Below the pieces are notes generated by a model. It worked only from the letters and a program-made list of their open reading frames with translations. It was not told where the DNA came from and made no database searches. DNA of 64,000 nucleotides from an uncultured Methanosarcinales archaeon (GTDB taxonomy: Archaea > Nanobdellota > Nanobdellia > Woesearchaeales > CAXGTL01): positions 1-64,000 of the forward strand of contig CAZHVK010000008.1 in NCBI GenBank assembly GCA_964535955.1, written 5' to 3'. Each line of letters begins with the position of its first letter. The stretch's first letter is position 1. A program made the translations under genes and the position numbers. Shown one piece after another: positions 26,731 through 56,660 of this stretch.

Positions 26731-27327
26731 TTAGCTTTGTCTATCTAATTCATTATGAACAATAACAATACAATGTGATGAATATATCATTAATGGTGAT
26801 AAAGAAATCTTTTCAGCACCTTTTCTTTTCAAAAGTCTGTTTGTTTGTTTGTCCATGCCTTTGTGGTCGCCAAAAATAAATACACTATCAACAGAATCAT
26901 CAAACTTTACTTTTCTTATGTCTGTGCCTTTTTTGTCTAAGTAATAAATCTGGCCTTGTACAAAGTTGACAAAGTCTGTGAATGTTTGTCTTTTGATTTC
27001 TATACCAGGTTCTACTTCTACTGATTGTTCTTTGTCTAGGCTGTTGCCTTTTTCAAGTGCTTTCTTGATCTTTGTTGCAATTGATCTTTCGTCATACTCA
27101 AACTGATGTAATTTAGATCCGTCAAAACTTATTATTCTTGTTGCATTTGGTTTTCCTTCCATTACAACATAAATAATTGTGTCTGGTCTGAAATGATTTG
27201 CAATAAATAATGAATTAGAAATACATCTTGTGACTAAATCAATTCTGCCAGAGTCTTTTAGATTGTTTAGATTGATTAATTTATCTGAAGTTGGTGCTTG
27301 TGTTGCTTTTAGTATGAAAGTTCTCAT
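26731..27327 (-). CDS. trmY: tRNA (pseudouridine54-N1)-methyltransferase, SPOUT family
   Basis: MRTFIL, SGRIDL..RC, FIFGDHKG, KISLSP and SHCIVIVHNELDR motifs. Confidence 0.9.
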   Translation of the reverse strand: MRTFILKATQAPTSDKLINLNNLKDSGRIDLVTRCISNSLFIANHFRPDTIIYVVMEGKPNATRIISFDGSKLHQFEYDERSIATKIKKALEKGNSLDKEQSVEVEPGIEIKRQTFTDFVNFVQGQIYYLDKKGTDIRKVKFDDSVDSVFIFGDHKGMDKQTNRLLKRKGAEKISLSPLMIYSSHCIVIVHNELDRQS

Positions 27328-27398
27328 AGAATCAAAGTAAATATGGGTGTATATAAAAGTATCTGATTAAAACAAGGATCTAGAAAAAGATCTAGAAA

Positions 27399-27998
27399 TC
27401 ATTTTTCATATCTTAAAATAATCTCTACAATCTGGTCTTCTGTATCTTGTTGTGAAGAAGGAATATTTGGAAGATTGTGATTAACAAAATTAATGATTTT
27501 TTGTGTTAGTGTGTCTATCTTTGAAAAATTTGCTTTTTTAGCATAAGAATAAAGTTCTTTAGATAATTTGTCAATTGTCTTTTTATGCTCTGTGTTAAAA
27601 TAAGGTTTTGATAAATTACATAATAATTCTATGTCTAGATATTTATGCATATATTTTTTTCTTCTGTCTGAAACTTTTTTTGGTTTTGTTATTTTTGGAA
27701 CATATTCTACACCAGAATTAACAATTGTCATGAGTTCATAGCTTAAGGATTTTTCCAGAACCTCTGCCTCTTTAACAGTTTTTTCAGACCTGTTTTCAGG
27801 ATGATTAATAATAGAATATAAAAATTTGATATCATTGTTACATTCTTCTATAGACATTGACCTGAATCTTTCTCTGACAAAGTCTCTTGTCTTTTTAATG
27901 TCCCTGTCCTGATCTTTGCATTTGATTATGCTGAGTCCTTTGAAATATTTTTGTTTGAGTTTTTCAAATTCTTGTTCTATATTGTCTTCATTGTCCAT
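27399..27998 (-). CDS. Hypothetical protein
   Basis: 199 aa ORF with no recognised motif. Confidence 0.65.
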   Translation of the reverse strand: MDNEDNIEQEFEKLKQKYFKGLSIIKCKDQDRDIKKTRDFVRERFRSMSIEECNNDIKFLYSIINHPENRSEKTVKEAEVLEKSLSYELMTIVNSGVEYVPKITKPKKVSDRRKKYMHKYLDIELLCNLSKPYFNTEHKKTIDKLSKELYSYAKKANFSKIDTLTQKIINFVNHNLPNIPSSQQDTEDQIVEIILRYEK

Positions 27999-28100
27999 GT
28001 TTATGAGGAAGATTGTATTTTTTTATAAATATAACTAGGTTGAAGTATATAATTTATGACATATAAATTTATATATATTTTCGCATTAATCGTGATTATT

Positions 28101-28283
28101 ATGTGTATTGGAGATAAAGTTATAAGATACTATAATAAGCCAGGAAGATATCGTAAACAGGATCCTAAATGGAATGGTGCTTCTCATAGTACTCATCCTG
28201 TGTATTATAGATATTATAGGAAATTAGTTAATTGTATTGATAATTATAGGTGTAGGAAATTTGGAGGAAAGTTTGAGTGCTGA
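28101..28283 (+). CDS. Small basic hypothetical protein
   Basis: Part of ORF 28056..28283; start MCIGDK is preferred because it lies just downstream of a TTTATATA box. Confidence 0.4.
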   Translation: MCIGDKVIRYYNKPGRYRKQDPKWNGASHSTHPVYYRYYRKLVNCIDNYRCRKFGGKFEC

Positions 28284-28492
28284 AAATGGTAAAAGAATAT
28301 ATAACAGTTGATGGGTTGGTTGCTTGTGAAGAAAAGAAAGTAGAGGACAATCCTGAAGGTGATCTGCTTAGAATAGTTAATGAACAATTAATGCAAGACA
28401 AAAGAAGAAATGAAGCAGCTATGCAGAAGATATATGATAATTTGAAATATAGAAAGGCAAGAAGATATAGGTCTGGAGTTGTTTATGTGTGA
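28277..28492 (+). CDS. Small hypothetical protein
   Basis: 71 aa ORF with GGAGG upstream, overlapping the previous stop. Confidence 0.5.
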   Translation: MLKMVKEYITVDGLVACEEKKVEDNPEGDLLRIVNEQLMQDKRRNEAAMQKIYDNLKYRKARRYRSGVVYV

Positions 28493-28558
28493 CTAAATCA
28501 CACTAACTTTTAATTTCTTCAGAAACATTATTAAATACTGAAACCTTACCAATGTAAA

Positions 28559-29119
28559 ATGGAAAGAGGAGTCAAAGATATCAATATATTGAATGAGTTT
28601 TGTGTTAGGTTCTGTAAAATATTAGAAAAACATGCTGATTATATCATTGTATCTGGTTTTGTTGCAATCGCTTCTGGTAGAGTAAGAGCTACAGAAGATA
28701 TTGATATAATCATTTCAAAGATTGATAAGGAACTATTTCTTCAATTACATAATGATTTGGTGGGAAATGATTTTGTATGTATGCAGAGTGATAATGGTGA
28801 TGAGATATATAATGAATATTTGAATCAAAAATCAAGTGTTAGATATACTTTAAAAGATCAACCATTGCCAGAGATGGAACTAAAATTAGCAAAAGATGAA
28901 TTAGATGAGTATCAATTAAAAACAAAACAGAAATTAGAATTAACTGGTCTAGATGTTTGGTTTAGTTCTATCAACATGAATATTGCATTTAAAGAAGAAT
29001 ATTTAAAATCTGACAAAGATTTAGAAGATGCAAAACATTTAAGAGAGGTTTATAGTGATTTAGTAAGTAATGATGAGATTAATAAAATAAAACAACTTAT
29101 AAAGAGGTTAAGATTATGA
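28559..29119 (+). CDS. Nucleotidyltransferase-fold protein (possible toxin-antitoxin component)
   Basis: YIIVSGFVAIASGRVRATEDIDI (G...R.T.DID) and C-terminal KD.ED motifs. Confidence 0.7.
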   Translation: MERGVKDINILNEFCVRFCKILEKHADYIIVSGFVAIASGRVRATEDIDIIISKIDKELFLQLHNDLVGNDFVCMQSDNGDEIYNEYLNQKSSVRYTLKDQPLPEMELKLAKDELDEYQLKTKQKLELTGLDVWFSSINMNIAFKEEYLKSDKDLEDAKHLREVYSDLVSNDEINKIKQLIKRLRL

Positions 29120-40879: not shown

Positions 40880-41227
40880 ATGGCTGGAATAAAGAAAAGA
40901 TTAGAAGAAGAAAAAAAACAAAAAGAACTAGAAATAAGAAGAACTAGGATGCCTAGAGATAAGCAGGTTCTTGGGATAGTTGAACAAAGATTGGGTGGTT
41001 CTAGAATGCATGTTAGGTGTCTTGATGGTAAAAATCGTATATGTAGAATACCTGGAAGATTAAAAAGAAGATTATGGGTTAGAGAAGGTAATTTTGTGAT
41101 TGTTGAACCATGGGAACTTGGTGGAGATGCAAAAGGAGATATAATTTATAAGTATAGACCTACACAAGTAGAATTCTTAAAACAAAAAGGAATGTTAAAA
41201 CAGTTAGAAGATGCTGATGAGTTTTAG
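40880..41227 (+). CDS. eif1a: Translation initiation factor aIF-1A
   Basis: [36 protein letters not shown] and KGDIIYKY motifs; start moved downstream of the repeat element. Confidence 0.95.
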
Positions 41228-41700
41228 TGTTTCTTTTTAATAAAATAAATAGCTAATAATATTGCACCAATTGTTATTGCACTATCAGCTATATTGAACA
41301 CAGGCCAAATACTGATTTTTATAAAATCTGTTATTGTGCCTAAAAAGATTCTATCAATCAGATTACCAAATGCACCGCCTAAGATAAGGCTAATGCTTAT
41401 TGCTAGTTTCCTGTTTTTGATGTCTTTTAAATAATAAATTATTACACAGATAATCAGAACATTAATGATTATCATAATTGGCTGCATGTTTTTAAATAAA
41501 CCAAATGCAATGCCTGTGTTTTGTATGTGTGTTAGTTCTAATACTTTTGGTATCAATGTTTCTGATTCATGCAATGCAAAAGATGTTCTGATTAAGAATT
41601 TTGTTAATTGGTCAAGTAGAATAATGAATATTGTGATTGAGAAGATTAGTTTGTAGTATTTAATACCCTTTCCTCTGTTCTTCAAGTGCGATCTCTTCAA
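41224..41700 (-). CDS. lspA: Lipoprotein signal peptidase II
   Basis: [25 protein letters not shown] and PVFNIADS motifs; exact start uncertain. Confidence 0.92.
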
Positions 41701-51619: not shown

Positions 51620-52432
51620 ATGAAGAAACTACTAACTGTAACAGCAGTGTGTTTGGTATTGTGTGGTTGTAGTTCATACTGTTCTGATAAAGCATATGCA
51701 GAAACATACAAATTAAAAGATGAAGATAAATTTAAACTTCAGCCTCATGTTGCTCTGCCTAGGCAGATGAGTATTGAGAATATGATTGAGTTTTATGCTG
51801 TGAAGTATGGTGTTAGGCCTGAGTTTATGAAAGCAATCTGCAAAGTAGAATCTAATTTTAAGCCTGATTGTGTATCATATCTAGGTGCTGCTGGTTTGTT
51901 TCAGTTCATGCCATATACTGCTGAATCAATAGGGTTAAAGATCTATAAAAATGAATTCTATACAAAAGCAATGAGTGCACAAACAAAAAAAGATAAACAT
52001 AAAAATCTAAAATTATATGCTAGTAGTTTTGAAAATTTTATTCGTTTGGTTGGTTTTGAAAAAGCAAAAACAATTGATCAGAGATTAGATAGAAATTATT
52101 GTGTGCAGAGTGCTGGAAGTTATATCAAAGCAAAACAAGAAAGGCATGGTAATGAAGCTTTGGCTGCTGCTGCTTATTTTGCTGGATCTGGTGCTGTTGA
52201 TGATTATGATGGTATTCCATCTTATGCAATTAATTATGTTGAAAAAGTTGCTGATAAGATGAAGGGCTTTGGAAGAGTTATGACTGGTTTAAAAGAGATT
52301 GAGAAAGCTAAGAAAAACAGAGGAAAACCACCAAAAAAGAAAAAAGAAAAAAAGAAGTATCGTACATTAAACAAGGTTATCAGAGAAATAAGAAAAATAG
52401 ACAGGTTAAGAAAATTTATATTTAGGTGGTGA
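51620..52432 (+). CDS. Lytic transglycosylase (SLT domain), putative lipoprotein
   Basis: Catalytic KVES; motifs S..GAAGLFQFMPYTA and AAAYFAGSGAV (AYNAG-like), INYVEKV; N-terminal VLCGC lipobox-like motif; Lys-rich tail. Confidence 0.88.
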   Translation: MKKLLTVTAVCLVLCGCSSYCSDKAYAETYKLKDEDKFKLQPHVALPRQMSIENMIEFYAVKYGVRPEFMKAICKVESNFKPDCVSYLGAAGLFQFMPYTAESIGLKIYKNEFYTKAMSAQTKKDKHKNLKLYASSFENFIRLVGFEKAKTIDQRLDRNYCVQSAGSYIKAKQERHGNEALAAAAYFAGSGAVDDYDGIPSYAINYVEKVADKMKGFGRVMTGLKEIEKAKKNRGKPPKKKKEKKKYRTLNKVIREIRKIDRLRKFIFRW

Positions 52433-53434
52433 TTAATTATGCAAATAAACCCTAAAACTATCCACATATGGAGAATTCCTTAATTTTTTTAATGATCTTG
52501 ATATGACAAGTCTTATTCCTTCCCTTGTCAAGTCATAATTTGCCTTGATTTCTTTTAAAGTTCTTTGAATTCCATCTCTTAAACCAAATCTCAACCTCAT
52601 TATTTCAGCATCCCTCTCAGATAAATACTTTGATAAGAAGCCTTCCACCTCAGACTTTAGTGCCAATTTGATTGCTGCATCCTCAGTACCCAACCTATTG
52701 TCTTTAACAAAATAATATTTTGATACAACACCTTTACCATCTTTTACTTTCTTGTCCAATGAATCACAAGTCTTATCATATCTTATTAATTCATTAAACC
52801 TTTCTTTAGAAATGTTTATTTCATGCGCCAGCTCATGATAATTAGGCTTTCTAAAATGTTTTCTAATGAACTTATTTTCAGTCCTAATCAGTTTGCCAAT
52901 CAACTCGTAAATCCAAGTAGGAATCCTTATAGTTCTGTCAGAATATATAATCTCATTAACAATCGCATTTCTTATTGACTTTCCTGCAAGATGAGATAGC
53001 TTTTTATTGAATTCAATCTTATATTTTCTTGCACATCTTAGCAAAGCAATGTTTCCCTCTTGAATCAAATCAAGAAAATCCAGTTTTCTAGTATCATACT
53101 CTTTTGCTATTTTCACAACCAAAGGCAAATTATTAGCAACTAAATCCTCTTCTGCTTCCTTGCTAAACTGCTTCTCCTTTCCTAATCTTAACTCTTCCTC
53201 AAGACTAAGAACTCTTACTTCTGGAAAACTAGTTATATATAACTTAAGGTTACTTTCCAAAAATTCTTTATCTTTAACATCATCTTCTTTTTTAGAATCA
53301 AATTCATCCCAATATTCAACATAATTAATATCTTTGCGCAAGCTTGTACAAAATCTTTCTATTTTCCCATCAATATCAGAATCTAGAATAAGTAATGCAA
53401 TTTCTGGTTCATATGCTGTTTGTACGTATTCCAT
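52433..53434 (-). CDS. Sigma70-family (RpoD-like) protein, divergent
   Basis: Region 1.2 LKLYI...LSLEEE; 2.1 NLPLVVKIAKEY; 2.2 DLIQEGNIAL; RTIRIP; region 3 PNYHELA...SLD; region 4 LSERDAEIMRLRFGL..RTLKEI..LTREGIR. Confidence 0.9.
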   Translation of the reverse strand: MEYVQTAYEPEIALLILDSDIDGKIERFCTSLRKDINYVEYWDEFDSKKEDDVKDKEFLESNLKLYITSFPEVRVLSLEEELRLGKEKQFSKEAEEDLVANNLPLVVKIAKEYDTRKLDFLDLIQEGNIALLRCARKYKIEFNKKLSHLAGKSIRNAIVNEIIYSDRTIRIPTWIYELIGKLIRTENKFIRKHFRKPNYHELAHEINISKERFNELIRYDKTCDSLDKKVKDGKGVVSKYYFVKDNRLGTEDAAIKLALKSEVEGFLSKYLSERDAEIMRLRFGLRDGIQRTLKEIKANYDLTREGIRLVISRSLKKLRNSPYVDSFRVYLHN

Positions 53435-53476
53435 TTATATATTAGTTTATATTAAAGGATTTATATATTTTACTGA

Positions 53477-54547
53477 TTAATTATATTTCCAGAAATCAAA
53501 GAACTTTTTTCTGAACATTGGACAAGCTCTTAATTTTCTAATTGCCTTTGCCTCAATCTGTCTTATTCTTTCCCTTACTACTCCATACTGCTCACCAATA
53601 CATTGTAAAGTCCTAGGGATTCCATCTTTCAAGCCAAATCTTTGCACCATCACATCAACTTCTTTCTCAGATAAATAATGTTTTTCATTAAAAAAATAAT
53701 CATACATACTTTTTCTTAGAACTGCATGATTGACAGCATTATCAACATTAAAATTTTTGTTTTCTATAAAATCTGACAATGTTTCACCTCCCTCATAAAT
53801 ATAATTTAAAGAAAGACATTTATGATTAGCTTTCATCAGTGTTTCTACTCTTTGTGGTTTATATCCAGAAGCTTGTGCAATCTCTAGATAAGTGGGTTTT
53901 CTTTTTAGTTTTTTTTCTAATTTTCTTTCATGTTGCAGTAATTGTGAAATTACTTGTACAGATTGAGCAGGTATTCTAATAGTTCTTGATTGTTCTTCAA
54001 TAGCCCTTACAATTGATTGTCTAATCCTATATGGTGCATATGTTGAAAATTTGTAACCAAATTTATAATCCCATTTTTTAACAGCTTTCATCAGACCTTT
54101 ATTACCTTCTTGAATAAGATCATTCCATTCTAAACCTCTATTTTTAAACATTTTAGCAACATGCACTACTAAACAAAGGTTTGCCTCTGTAAAATCATTC
54201 TCTGCTTGTTTACTTCCTTGTTCAATTCGTTTTGCTATTTTTTTTTGTTCTTCAAACTCCCTTATACATGATTTTTTCATTATCTCTGTTCTGTATTGTG
54301 AAAAAGAATTTGTATAGTCAATGTCTGGGTTTTGTTTTTCTTTCTTGTTATCTTGTGTTATCTGTTCAAATATATCATTATGTATTTCATTATCATGCTT
54401 TTCATTAGATTTTGTCTTTTTTTCTTGTTGTTTATTTATATTATATTCAAGAAGTTCTAATTCTATATTGTCTATTGATGTCTCTAGATTGACATTACAC
54501 TTAAGATCAATATTCACCTCTTTTGTCAATGTTTGTGTTTTATACAT
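53477..54547 (-). CDS. Sigma70-family (RpoD-like) protein
   Basis: ANLCLVVHVAK..NRGL..DLIQEGNKGLMKAV, GYKFSTYA, IRQSI.RAI..QSRTIRIP, PTYLEIA and RFGL.DG.PRTL..IG..GVVRERIRQIEAKAIRKLR motifs. Confidence 0.95.
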   Translation of the reverse strand: MYKTQTLTKEVNIDLKCNVNLETSIDNIELELLEYNINKQQEKKTKSNEKHDNEIHNDIFEQITQDNKKEKQNPDIDYTNSFSQYRTEIMKKSCIREFEEQKKIAKRIEQGSKQAENDFTEANLCLVVHVAKMFKNRGLEWNDLIQEGNKGLMKAVKKWDYKFGYKFSTYAPYRIRQSIVRAIEEQSRTIRIPAQSVQVISQLLQHERKLEKKLKRKPTYLEIAQASGYKPQRVETLMKANHKCLSLNYIYEGGETLSDFIENKNFNVDNAVNHAVLRKSMYDYFFNEKHYLSEKEVDVMVQRFGLKDGIPRTLQCIGEQYGVVRERIRQIEAKAIRKLRACPMFRKKFFDFWKYN

Positions 54548-54638
54548 AGTAATTTTGAGAAATCTAATTATTTGTTTTTAAAGTTTTTGGTTATAGGACT
54601 AAAGATTTATATATACCAAAAGATTAAAAGGTAATATA

Positions 54639-54965
54639 ATGAAATTTAAGGATTATAAATTAAAAATACATAATGTTGAAAAACATGTTAGATTAAATCC
54701 TGTAATGAAAACAAAAAAAGATTATGATGAAGAAATTCTTAGATTAAATGAATATTATGAAAAGATAAGGACTTATGAAAAAGAAGTAGAAGAGGACAAG
54801 GATCTGACAGACAGTGAAAGAGAACAATTGGTAATGTACTTAGGAGCTGTAAAAGACAAGATTGTTGATCAATTTAATAAAGTTACAGCTTTAGGTGATA
54901 AAATTATTAGAAAAAAGTTAGAAAAAGAGAATAAATGGGTGCCTGTTTTTGAAAAAGCTGCTTAA
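54639..54965 (+). CDS. Hypothetical protein
   Basis: 108 aa helical ORF divergent from the sigma genes; TTTATATA upstream. Confidence 0.65.
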   Translation: MKFKDYKLKIHNVEKHVRLNPVMKTKKDYDEEILRLNEYYEKIRTYEKEVEEDKDLTDSEREQLVMYLGAVKDKIVDQFNKVTALGDKIIRKKLEKENKWVPVFEKAA

Positions 54966-55808: not shown

Positions 55809-56660
55809 ATGGATTATAGAGACAAGATAAAATTTGCAGATGAAAAAAGTCCTGAATTTATTAAGAATATGGATTATTTTTTTAGAAATTCAAATGAGGA
55901 TGTACAAATTACAACTGATTTTTTAAAAGAATTCAGGAAAAGATACAAACAACCAAAAACTAAGTTAGATTGGTTAGATGTTGGCACAGGACCTTGTGTT
56001 AAACCAATCATGATTTTAGAAGGAAGTAATAGAAATAGTGGTTTGATAAATGATTTCAATGAAATATATATTGATGTTATTGAGCCTGAAGAATCTTGGC
56101 ACGATATTTTTACACACAATCTTAATGAATTAGGATTATATTGGTTAATAACAAATATTTTTAGTTCAACATGGGAAGATTTTGATCAAGATAAAAAGTA
56201 TAATTTAATTACTTTTTTTCATTCAACATATGGGATTGATCCTGAATCATTAGGAAAAGTGCCAAATATATTGCATGAAGGTGGAATTGCATGCATTATA
56301 TTAGAAGATCCTGAATCTGCATTGTATAAAATTAAACAAAGAGTTAGTTCTTATATCAATTTAAGAGAAACAGTTTCATTTTCAAAAGAGATCTCTGATG
56401 TATTAAGTCAAAAAGGAATTTATCATGAAATTCAAAAAAATGAATCTAAGAGAATGCTTTATGTTGATGATCTATTGAAAGATGATGATATAACACAATT
56501 ATCATTTTTATTACAGACAAAATTAGAGAATCATGATAAAAGAATACAAAAAAAAGTATTAAATGAAATGAAAGATGAATTAAATAAACATATTAAAGAA
56601 GATCAAAATAGGAAAAAATATATAGAAACACCTGATGAATTTATATGGGTCTATAACTAA
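55809..56660 (+). CDS. Class I SAM-dependent methyltransferase
   Basis: WLDVGTGP, VIEP, YNLI..FHS.Y and LHEGG motifs. Confidence 0.8.
   Translation: MDYRDKIKFADEKSPEFIKNMDYFFRNSNEDVQITTDFLKEFRKRYKQPKTKLDWLDVGTGPCVKPIMILEGSNRNSGLINDFNEIYIDVIEPEESWHDIFTHNLNELGLYWLITNIFSSTWEDFDQDKKYNLITFFHSTYGIDPESLGKVPNILHEGGIACIILEDPESALYKIKQRVSSYINLRETVSFSKEISDVLSQKGIYHEIQKNESKRMLYVDDLLKDDDITQLSFLLQTKLENHDKRIQKKVLNEMKDELNKHIKEDQNRKKYIETPDEFIWVYN

Follow-up and report, generated by a model that had tools for sequence, protein, structure and literature searches.

Why would an archaeon, expected to have only an archaeal RNA polymerase, keep two genes for bacterial-type sigma factors, and could the encoded proteins still open a promoter? 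This question is raised by contig CAZHVK010000008.1, of which the first 64,000 nucleotides (the whole stretch that was analysed, hereafter the window) carry two sigma-70-family genes in tandem on the minus strand. A first-pass annotation, made from the sequence alone, had observed that both proteins lack the Trp-Trp (WW) dyad of Escherichia coli sigma70 (W433-W434), and had proposed that they are decoys which can bind core RNA polymerase or -35 DNA but open promoters poorly. Here, the upstream copy is called sigA-like and the downstream copy sigB-like; they are the only sigma copies in the window. Both are real, intact genes of bacterial group-1 (RpoD-like) ancestry, and the erosion of the W-dyad site and the melting region around it is mild in sigA-like and severe in sigB-like. 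The genes and the segments that matter for the argument are located as follows:

53477..54547, minus strand: sigA-like gene, 356 amino acids; sigma-70 family, group-1-derived, with Y-R at the W-dyad site.
52433..53434, minus strand: sigB-like gene, 333 amino acids; a more degenerate sigma-70 paralogue, with K-S at the W-dyad site.
53435..53476, minus strand: spacer between the tandem sigma genes, 42 bp, AT-rich.
54101..54121, minus strand: DLIQEGN of region 2.2 in sigA-like, with the equivalents of the core-binding residues D403/Q406/E407/N409.
53051..53071, minus strand: DLIQEGN of region 2.2 in sigB-like, with the same core-binding equivalents.
54011..54052, minus strand: region 2.3/2.4 segment of sigA-like, KFSTYAPYRIRQSI in translation, equivalent to E. 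coli residues 426-439.
52961..53002, minus strand: region 2.3/2.4 segment of sigB-like, KLSHLAGKSIRNAI, from translation and alignment.
53528..53581, minus strand: region 4.2 recognition helix of sigA-like, VVRERIRQIEAKAIRKLR, in which the equivalents of R584/E585/R586/R588/Q589 are all kept.
52478..52531, minus strand: region 4.2 helix of sigB-like, LTREGIRLVISRSLKKLR, with R586G and Q589L.

The family assignment was assessed with profile, structure and motif comparisons. Against the Pfam gathering cut-offs for regions 2, 3 and 4 (24, 25.3 and 24.1 bits), sigA-like exceeds all three with 50.7, 32.4 and 45.2 bits, and sigB-like exceeds those for regions 2 and 4 (39.9 and 38.6 bits) and stays just under that for region 3 (23.5 bits), the helices of which are still present in its predicted model with a predicted local distance difference test score (pLDDT) of 84-94. 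No match to Pfam regions 1.1 (PF03979) and 1.2 (PF00140) was obtained in either protein at E <= 0.01. The top NCBIfam models are RpoD, with scores far under the equivalog cut-offs for both proteins (sigA-like, 238.2 vs 572 for NF006666 and 225.8 vs 354 for TIGR02393; sigB-like, 160.3 vs 354 for TIGR02393). Neither protein is thus an RpoD/SigA group 1 equivalog, be it by score, by W433-W434 and the seven aromatic residues of region 2.3, or by regions 1.1/1.2. All the same, the best sequence, profile and fold matches of both are group 1/2 factors (RpoD/SigA, RpoS), with regions 2, 3 and 4 in the same order. The closest solved structures are SigA chains (Bacillus, Staphylococcus, mycobacteria), whose W-W faces Y-R and K-S, and Foldseek matched the sigB-like model to SigA chains in holoenzyme structures with E of about 1e-14. 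AlphaFold models are confident over sigma2 to sigma4 (mean pLDDT 82.6 and 79.8) and low over the N-terminal 50-80 residues; as the input consisted of 50-row alignments dominated by RpoD, confident models are expected and constitute weak evidence.

The motifs quoted by the first-pass annotation proved exact in the translations. DLIQEGN, RTIRIP and the region 4 helix-turn-helix are found in both proteins, which are 32% identical to each other, while the near-consensus RERIRQIEAKAIRKLR is present in the upstream copy only. The recognition helix of sigA-like reads RERIRQIEAKA, as in group 1/2 factors.

Individual residues were assigned with E. coli K-12 RpoD numbering as the ruler. The preprint bioRxiv 10.1101/2020.09.07.285775 gives D403, Q406, E407 and N409 as core-binding, describes seven aromatic residues in region 2.3, and gives Q437 and T440 as readers of position -12. 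All four core-binding residues are kept in both copies. At F419, Y421, Y425, F427, Y430, W433 and W434, sigA-like has W, Y, Y, F, Y, Y and R (6/7 aromatic), and sigB-like has Y, I, K, L, L, K and S (1/7 aromatic). Alignment with SigA chains and with E. coli RpoD, RpoS, RpoH and FliA places the Y-R and K-S pairs opposite W433-W434, so that the two copies indeed carry different substitutions at the same site; an arginine at the 434 equivalent is found in sigA-like only. The treatment of both copies alike held for the absence of WW itself and failed for its surroundings, with one non-aromatic position of seven in sigA-like vs six of seven in sigB-like. In addition, sigA-like retains T429, R436, Q437 and R441 as well as 5/5 of R584, E585, R586, R588 and Q589, which we take to be the -35 contacts. 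Further changes in sigB-like are T429H, Q437N, R441N, R586G and Q589L, leaving 3/5 of the presumed -35 contacts; hence the claim that the -35-reading helix is retained applies to sigA-like and not to sigB-like. Both copies show T440V and have lost H455, a residue with a role at the extended -10 element. By alignment, the sigma finger (the loop of region 3.2) has eight acidic and no basic residues in E. coli and four acidic and no basic residues in sigA-like, and is charge-reversed in sigB-like, with three acidic residues and six Lys.

How unusual is the loss of the dyad? WW is present in 238/238 non-self matches from two word-index searches and in 148/148 non-self matches listed by an exhaustive profile search of 1.84 billion cluster representatives, where 146 were called by pattern and two, P0505 and P0413, by inspection. 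With one protein common to both sets, the pool comprises 385 distinct relatives, none of which lacks WW (0/385); only the window's own clusters (P0001 and P0121) do. The statement that WW is invariant is thereby borne out for the group-1-like relatives sampled, and its loss in both window proteins exceeds what chance would produce. The closest non-self relatives, all RpoD-like, are 47% identical to sigA-like and 36-38% identical to sigB-like, and neither the word-index searches nor the exhaustive profile search yielded relatives closer than 47% and 38%, respectively. Two apparent high scorers, P0361 and P0362, were rejected as relatives, being internally duplicated sequences. An ESM Atlas search with sigB-like returned bacterial clusters plus one viral sigma cluster and nothing else, and a scan of species genomes with sigA-like gave no match. 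No description of the loss of region 2.3 or of the W-dyad in archaeal sigma homologues was found in a literature search, bioRxiv supplements being outside its scope.

Absence of the dyad does not by itself entail poor promoter opening, as had been assumed, since two E. coli factors of group 3 function without it: in our alignment, FliA reads Q-R and RpoH reads H-W at this site. According to a sigma28 structure paper of 2026, WW is replaced there by I79/R80, and the Arg in the place of W434, a conserved residue of group 3, touches position -12 (PMC12784957). The activity of the wedge has been ranked WW > HW > QR in a sigma32 structure paper (PMC10216364). Because sigA-like combines Y-R with 6/7 aromatic residues and a kept Q437, it resembles a weaker but working wedge, and poor melting does not follow for this copy. 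sigA-like has Arg at the W434 position, as FliA does, and both window proteins lack the dyad, as these functional sigmas do. On the other hand, neither is grouped with E. coli FliA or RpoH (the only two group-3 sequences in our tree), sigA-like keeps the RpoD-type Q437 and region 4.2, and sigB-like has neither the Arg nor the aromatics. Since the whole -10 capture helix is gone from sigB-like, it is a reasonable prediction that this protein is unable to read or open the -10 element.

To compare the regions, we used the 102 near-invariant columns, defined by a conservation of at least 95% in the 238 relatives. Of these, sigA-like keeps 68 and sigB-like 57, so that 34 and 45 are changed. The boundaries of the sigma regions are approximate. 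The columns kept per region are:

Region 1.2: sigA-like 2/9, sigB-like 4/9.
Region 2.1: sigA-like 8/13, sigB-like 11/13.
Region 2.2: sigA-like 11/12, sigB-like 8/12.
Region 2.3: sigA-like 7/11, sigB-like 4/11.
Region 2.4: sigA-like 11/14, sigB-like 8/14.
Region 3.0: sigA-like 3/8, sigB-like 3/8.
Region 3.1: sigA-like 2/2, sigB-like 2/2.
Region 3.2: sigA-like 4/7, sigB-like 4/7.
Region 4.1: sigA-like 4/5, sigB-like 4/5.
Region 4.2: sigA-like 16/20, sigB-like 9/20.

Regions 2.1 and 2.2 together keep 19/25 columns in each copy, and regions 1.2, 2.3 and 3.0 together keep 12/28 in sigA-like and 11/28 in sigB-like, a difference with Fisher p = 0.025 and 0.012, respectively, for a grouping chosen post hoc. 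The comparison that had been set beforehand, region 2.2 vs region 2.3, is not significant on its own (p = 0.15 and 0.22). Judged from these alignments, the decay appears non-uniform: the part that grips the polymerase is kept and the parts that handle single-stranded DNA are eroded, as is the -35 reader of sigB-like.

The ancestry of the pair was analysed with a tree of 41 rows, comprising the two window proteins, four E. coli sigmas, nine chosen matches and 26 profile-search representatives (every third of those with <=520 amino acids, after eight duplicated, multi-stretch or very long ones had been dropped). A branch with a Shimodaira-Hasegawa-like approximate likelihood-ratio test (SH-aLRT) support of 99 separates RpoH and FliA from a clade with RpoD, RpoS, all representatives and both window proteins. 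Inside this clade, each window protein changes its place when the other is omitted. Their end branches measure 2.76 and 5.94, 4 to 10 times the median of 0.62, suggesting that both proteins have evolved very fast. Compared with group 1/2 factors, the pair thus differs in the missing WW, the missing match to regions 1.1/1.2, the sub-equivalog scores, the long branches and the archaeal host.

sigA-like and sigB-like come out as sisters with an SH-aLRT of 88, where the program warns of two joined long branches. They have in common the derived residues T440V, V576I, F580Y and L607F, at columns that are at least 95% conserved in the relatives, and a 75-nucleotide in-register stretch in region 4.1 (52553-52627 and 53603-53677) with 73% DNA identity, which may be left over from a duplication or from gene conversion. 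Because of the tandem position, the joint derived residues, the DNA stretch and the sister grouping, the pair probably arose by tandem duplication. Both reading frames run uninterrupted, for 356 and 333 codons, through DNA with a GC content of about 30%. The sole variant recorded, P0121 (324 amino acids), is sigB-like minus residues 44-52, an in-frame deletion of nine residues in the acidic N-terminal stretch. A phage origin was considered and rejected: 133 phage records match, all with <60% identity and the best with 42-44%, no closer than cellular RpoD.

The host of these genes is a Woesearchaeota-type DPANN archaeon. Pfam identifies deoxyhypusine synthase, diphthamide synthase, eIF-1A, aRF1 and an XPD-type helicase on the same contig, with TrmB-like and Lrp/AsnC regulators adjoining the sigma genes. 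Among the 120 relatives listed for the adjacent SecD, the 19 that bear an organism name are all archaeal (12 Candidatus Woesearchaeota, 4 Nanoarchaeota, 2 'archaeon' and 1 'Euryarchaeota archaeon SM23-78'). With a SecD alignment as the query, 80 loci were obtained from species genomes at 38-57% identity, 80/80 of them titled archaea, mostly Woesearchaeota/Nanoarchaeota. The sigma pair has archaeal genes on both flanks, and the sigA-like cluster is recorded on 6 contigs. Because their GC content (0.286 and 0.308), their GC content at third codon positions and their codon-usage distance (0.195 and 0.199) lie inside the range of the host genes and are like those of the neighbours, the sigma genes are neither recent arrivals nor contaminants and are long resident.

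'Complete sigma factors in Archaea' were reportedly described by Rinke et al. in 2013. In Castelle 2021 (PMC8204110), a sigma-70 family, fam00359, is called 'particularly prevalent in Woesearchaeota' and is present, according to Table S3, in 39% of 196 Woesearchaeota, 38% of 90 Pacearchaeota and 38% of 37 Aenigmarchaeota genomes. The same text excludes mis-binning, finds no anti-sigma factors and calls the mechanism unclear (PMC8204110). Embedded in a Woesearchaeota-type contig, our pair joins the DPANN sigma-70 homologues already reported. It resembles fam00359 in being a bacterial-type sigma-70 gene in a genome of the kind expected to have only an archaeal RNA polymerase and in having no anti-sigma factor evident; it differs, as far as the published descriptions seen extend and by comparison with descriptions rather than sequences, in the residue-level erosion of the melting region, which these do not describe.

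The explanation that we favour, and to which we give an even chance, is that group-1-type sigma genes were transferred and have been kept in the archaeon under a changed constraint, as putative binding-only regulators of which sigB-like would be a DNA-blind form. With an archaeal polymerase in the cell, selection for promoter opening with the bacterial core enzyme would have been gone, and under such relaxed selection the module for -10 capture and melting (regions 1.2, 2.3 and 3.0) may have eroded, partly in sigA-like and nearly fully in sigB-like. The former retains a group-3-style wedge of an aromatic residue plus Arg and a complete -35-reading helix; the latter has also lost part of that helix, and its sigma finger is charge-reversed. 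What selection would have kept in both is the surface of regions 2.1/2.2, which in bacteria grips the clamp helices of the polymerase, and in sigA-like also the DNA-reading helices. We infer that both proteins bind a partner, most plausibly a clamp-type coiled coil of a polymerase, without melting promoters, that sigA-like would bind DNA besides this partner, and that sigB-like, blind to DNA, would only occupy it.

Several observations weigh against this explanation. The residues that contact the beta-prime clamp helices are strictly kept, which is unlike adaptation to a different, archaeal partner, and this strict retention may reflect fold constraints or a bacterial target instead. The regional contrast comes from a grouping made after the fact with approximate boundaries, and it is not significant for regions 2.2 and 2.3 alone. 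The sister grouping dissolves when one protein is omitted, sigA-like then standing beside P0408 (SH-aLRT 81) and sigB-like beside P0127/P0129 (34). No orthologues that could bear out purifying selection were found in the searches described, and the sole variant, P0121, is identical bar its in-frame deletion. The distribution of the pair is also patchy, as SecD has relatives at 73-79% identity and for the sigma proteins none closer than 47% and 38% was found; a dispensable gene would show such a pattern no less than a specialised one. In the 80 archaeal SecD loci (1.16 Mb), tblastn at E <= 1e-5 detected no relative of either sigma gene. Finally, neither sigma-70-type promoter-like sites (74 vs 85.8 +/- 10.5 expected) nor TTGACA (60 vs 80 +/- 8.6 expected) are enriched in the window, so there is no sign of a sigA-like regulon.

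A dominant-negative mimic, as put forward in the first-pass annotation, would have to compete for the core polymerase of a bacterium. Since the contig is archaeal and an archaeal cell should lack such an enzyme, the decoy idea could only work in a bacterial partner. It fits the residue pattern of sigB-like well, and it leads to an alternative that we regard as unlikely, namely that the archaeon lives or preys on bacteria and that the two proteins are inter-domain effectors acting on the partner's RNA polymerase, as phage sigmas do. Under this alternative, sigA-like would redirect the polymerase to other promoters, sigB-like would occupy the core without reading promoters, and the product of a neighbouring gene would help to breach the wall:

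51620..52432, plus strand: SLT-domain lytic transglycosylase, 270 amino acids; Pfam SLT 59.5 bits; lipoprotein-like N-terminus.

The strict retention of bacterial-core contact residues in both proteins, despite 53-64% divergence from their nearest relatives, favours such a role, as does the competitor-like pattern of sigB-like, with core-binding residues kept and DNA-reading residues lost. Directly next to the sigma pair lies the lipoprotein-like SLT gene, in which the catalytic Glu motif is intact; from SLT-domain proteins, Castelle 2021 (PMC8204110) proposes that some Woesearchaeota/Pacearchaeota may be episymbionts of bacteria. The gene neighbourhood alone is nevertheless a weak argument, the SLT gene being convergent and not co-transcribed with the sigma pair. 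Neither N-terminus shows a signal peptide or export signal on inspection by eye, and the literature examined documents no bacterial host of any DPANN archaeon. Both proteins match phrog_351, and they share with phage sigma factors of this family (PHROG 351) their occurrence in a genome without a bacterial polymerase of its own; they differ in that nothing points to delivery into another cell, and cellular RpoD is as close to them as any of the 133 phage records, in which identity does not exceed 44%. The complete scenario of an inter-domain hijacking kit, in which the archaeon would attach to bacteria, use the transglycosylase to get through the wall, and introduce sigA-like to retarget the bacterial polymerase and sigB-like to jam it, is a shade more doubtful again. 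If true, it would be a cellular analogue of phage sigmas, and bacterial hosts of DPANN archaea would for the first time have molecular evidence behind them. A further speculative reading is that the conserved region 2.2 surface would bind the clamp coiled coil of the archaeal polymerase and compete with TFE or Spt4/5.

Could the genes instead be decaying relics, bacterial-derived, functionless in an archaeal cell and drifting, with the loss of WW as one part of the decay? The very long branches would agree with drift, as would the 34 and 45 changed columns of 102, the erosion of regions 1.2 and 3.0 besides 2.3 (and of 4.2 in sigB-like), the lack of orthologues in relatives and the lack of enrichment of target-like motifs. 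However, both frames have stayed open over their full length at a GC content where stops arise easily, and the only known variant is an in-frame deletion. The decay is uneven, with 19/25 columns of regions 2.1 and 2.2 kept in both copies, and the predicted domains are modelled with confidence. DPANN archaea have small genomes that tend to lose DNA without a use. Taken together, these points make relics, in our view, an improbable explanation.

That the proteins are ordinary alternative sigmas served by a bacterial-type core encoded elsewhere, or that the contig is chimeric or contaminated, is very improbable: FliA and RpoH do work with QR and HW, and sigA-like keeps nearly all promoter-reading residues, but the pair sits among archaeal genes for translation and repair on a single contig that is uniform in composition, and the SecD next to it groups with archaea alone. 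Both proteins fall with RpoD/RpoS, a branch splitting off RpoH and FliA, and sigB-like has lost Y425, F427, T429, Y430, W433, W434, Q437 and R441 together, beyond the RpoH and FliA states. Mis-binning was excluded for DPANN sigma genes in Castelle 2021 (PMC8204110).

The pair gives a residue-level clue to DPANN sigma genes, which Castelle 2021 (PMC8204110) reports without a functional explanation, as, reportedly, did Rinke et al. in 2013. Through extensive divergence, the polymerase-gripping helix was preserved in both copies and the DNA-reading helices in one, and the promoter-opening module was not. Binding to a bacterial or an archaeal clamp, binding of DNA alone and the generality of region 2.3 erosion in archaeal sigmas thereby become testable questions. 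If the target were a bacterial polymerase, the pair would be relevant to the question of bacterial hosts for some DPANN archaea.

The sigma pair is followed downstream by the SLT gene, which is convergent with sigB-like and ends one base before its stop codon. The catalytic VES (E-S) motif of the encoded protein is intact and aligns with MltC/EmtA chains. The protein, an enzyme that cleaves peptidoglycan yet is encoded by an archaeon, has a lipobox-like LCGC that includes a Cys, and its C-terminal tail is very basic. A bacterial-type lipoprotein signal peptidase II (Peptidase_A8, 136 bits) is encoded at 41224-41700 on the minus strand of the same archaeal contig, which is consistent with the processing of lipoproteins such as the SLT protein.

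Upstream of the pair, the following features were identified:

54548..54638, no strand assigned: divergent intergenic region between sigA-like and ORF108, 91 bp.
54639..54965, plus strand: ORF108, a small Lys/Glu-rich protein, divergent from sigA-like.

For ORF108, only a sub-threshold Pfam match was found (MIP-T3_C, 18.6 vs 25.8 bits), with no PADLOC or PHROGs family and no usable Atlas match. It was considered as an anti-sigma candidate and set aside, no family from Pfam, PADLOC or PHROGs being above threshold and adjacency alone suggesting binding. A link to defence systems was likewise dropped, as there were only generic matches to the sigma part of MzaA (218 vs an NCBIfam cut-off of 800). 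SecF is syntenic in 79/80 SecD loci and is the sole syntenic gene; the same tblastn searches detected no relatives of the SLT, ORF108, HhH-GPD, TrmB, ORF283 and Lrp genes in these loci. ORF283 (55809-56660, plus strand), of 283 amino acids, has no Pfam, PADLOC or PHROGs family and contains a DVGTGP stretch, which in our judgement resembles motif I of S-adenosylmethionine-dependent methyltransferases.

No convincing flanking repeats that would mark the borders of a mobile element were detected between 51.5 and 55 kb, and no intrinsic-terminator-like hairpins between 46000 and 60000 (0 vs 4.1 +/- 2.3 in shuffles). The whole 64-kb window contains no tRNA and no Rfam match. At its left end (2-23589, minus strand) lie giant open reading frames of 2370 (open-ended), 1680, 1425 and 1743 amino acids, none of which has an SLT domain. 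Three of them have a subtilase (Peptidase_S8) domain with an I9 propeptide, MopE-type metal-binding repeats or FG-GAP repeats; they are probably surface proteases. The GC skew flips near 28 kb (27000-29000), from about -0.2 before to +0.4 after this point, which coincides with the change of the coding strand.

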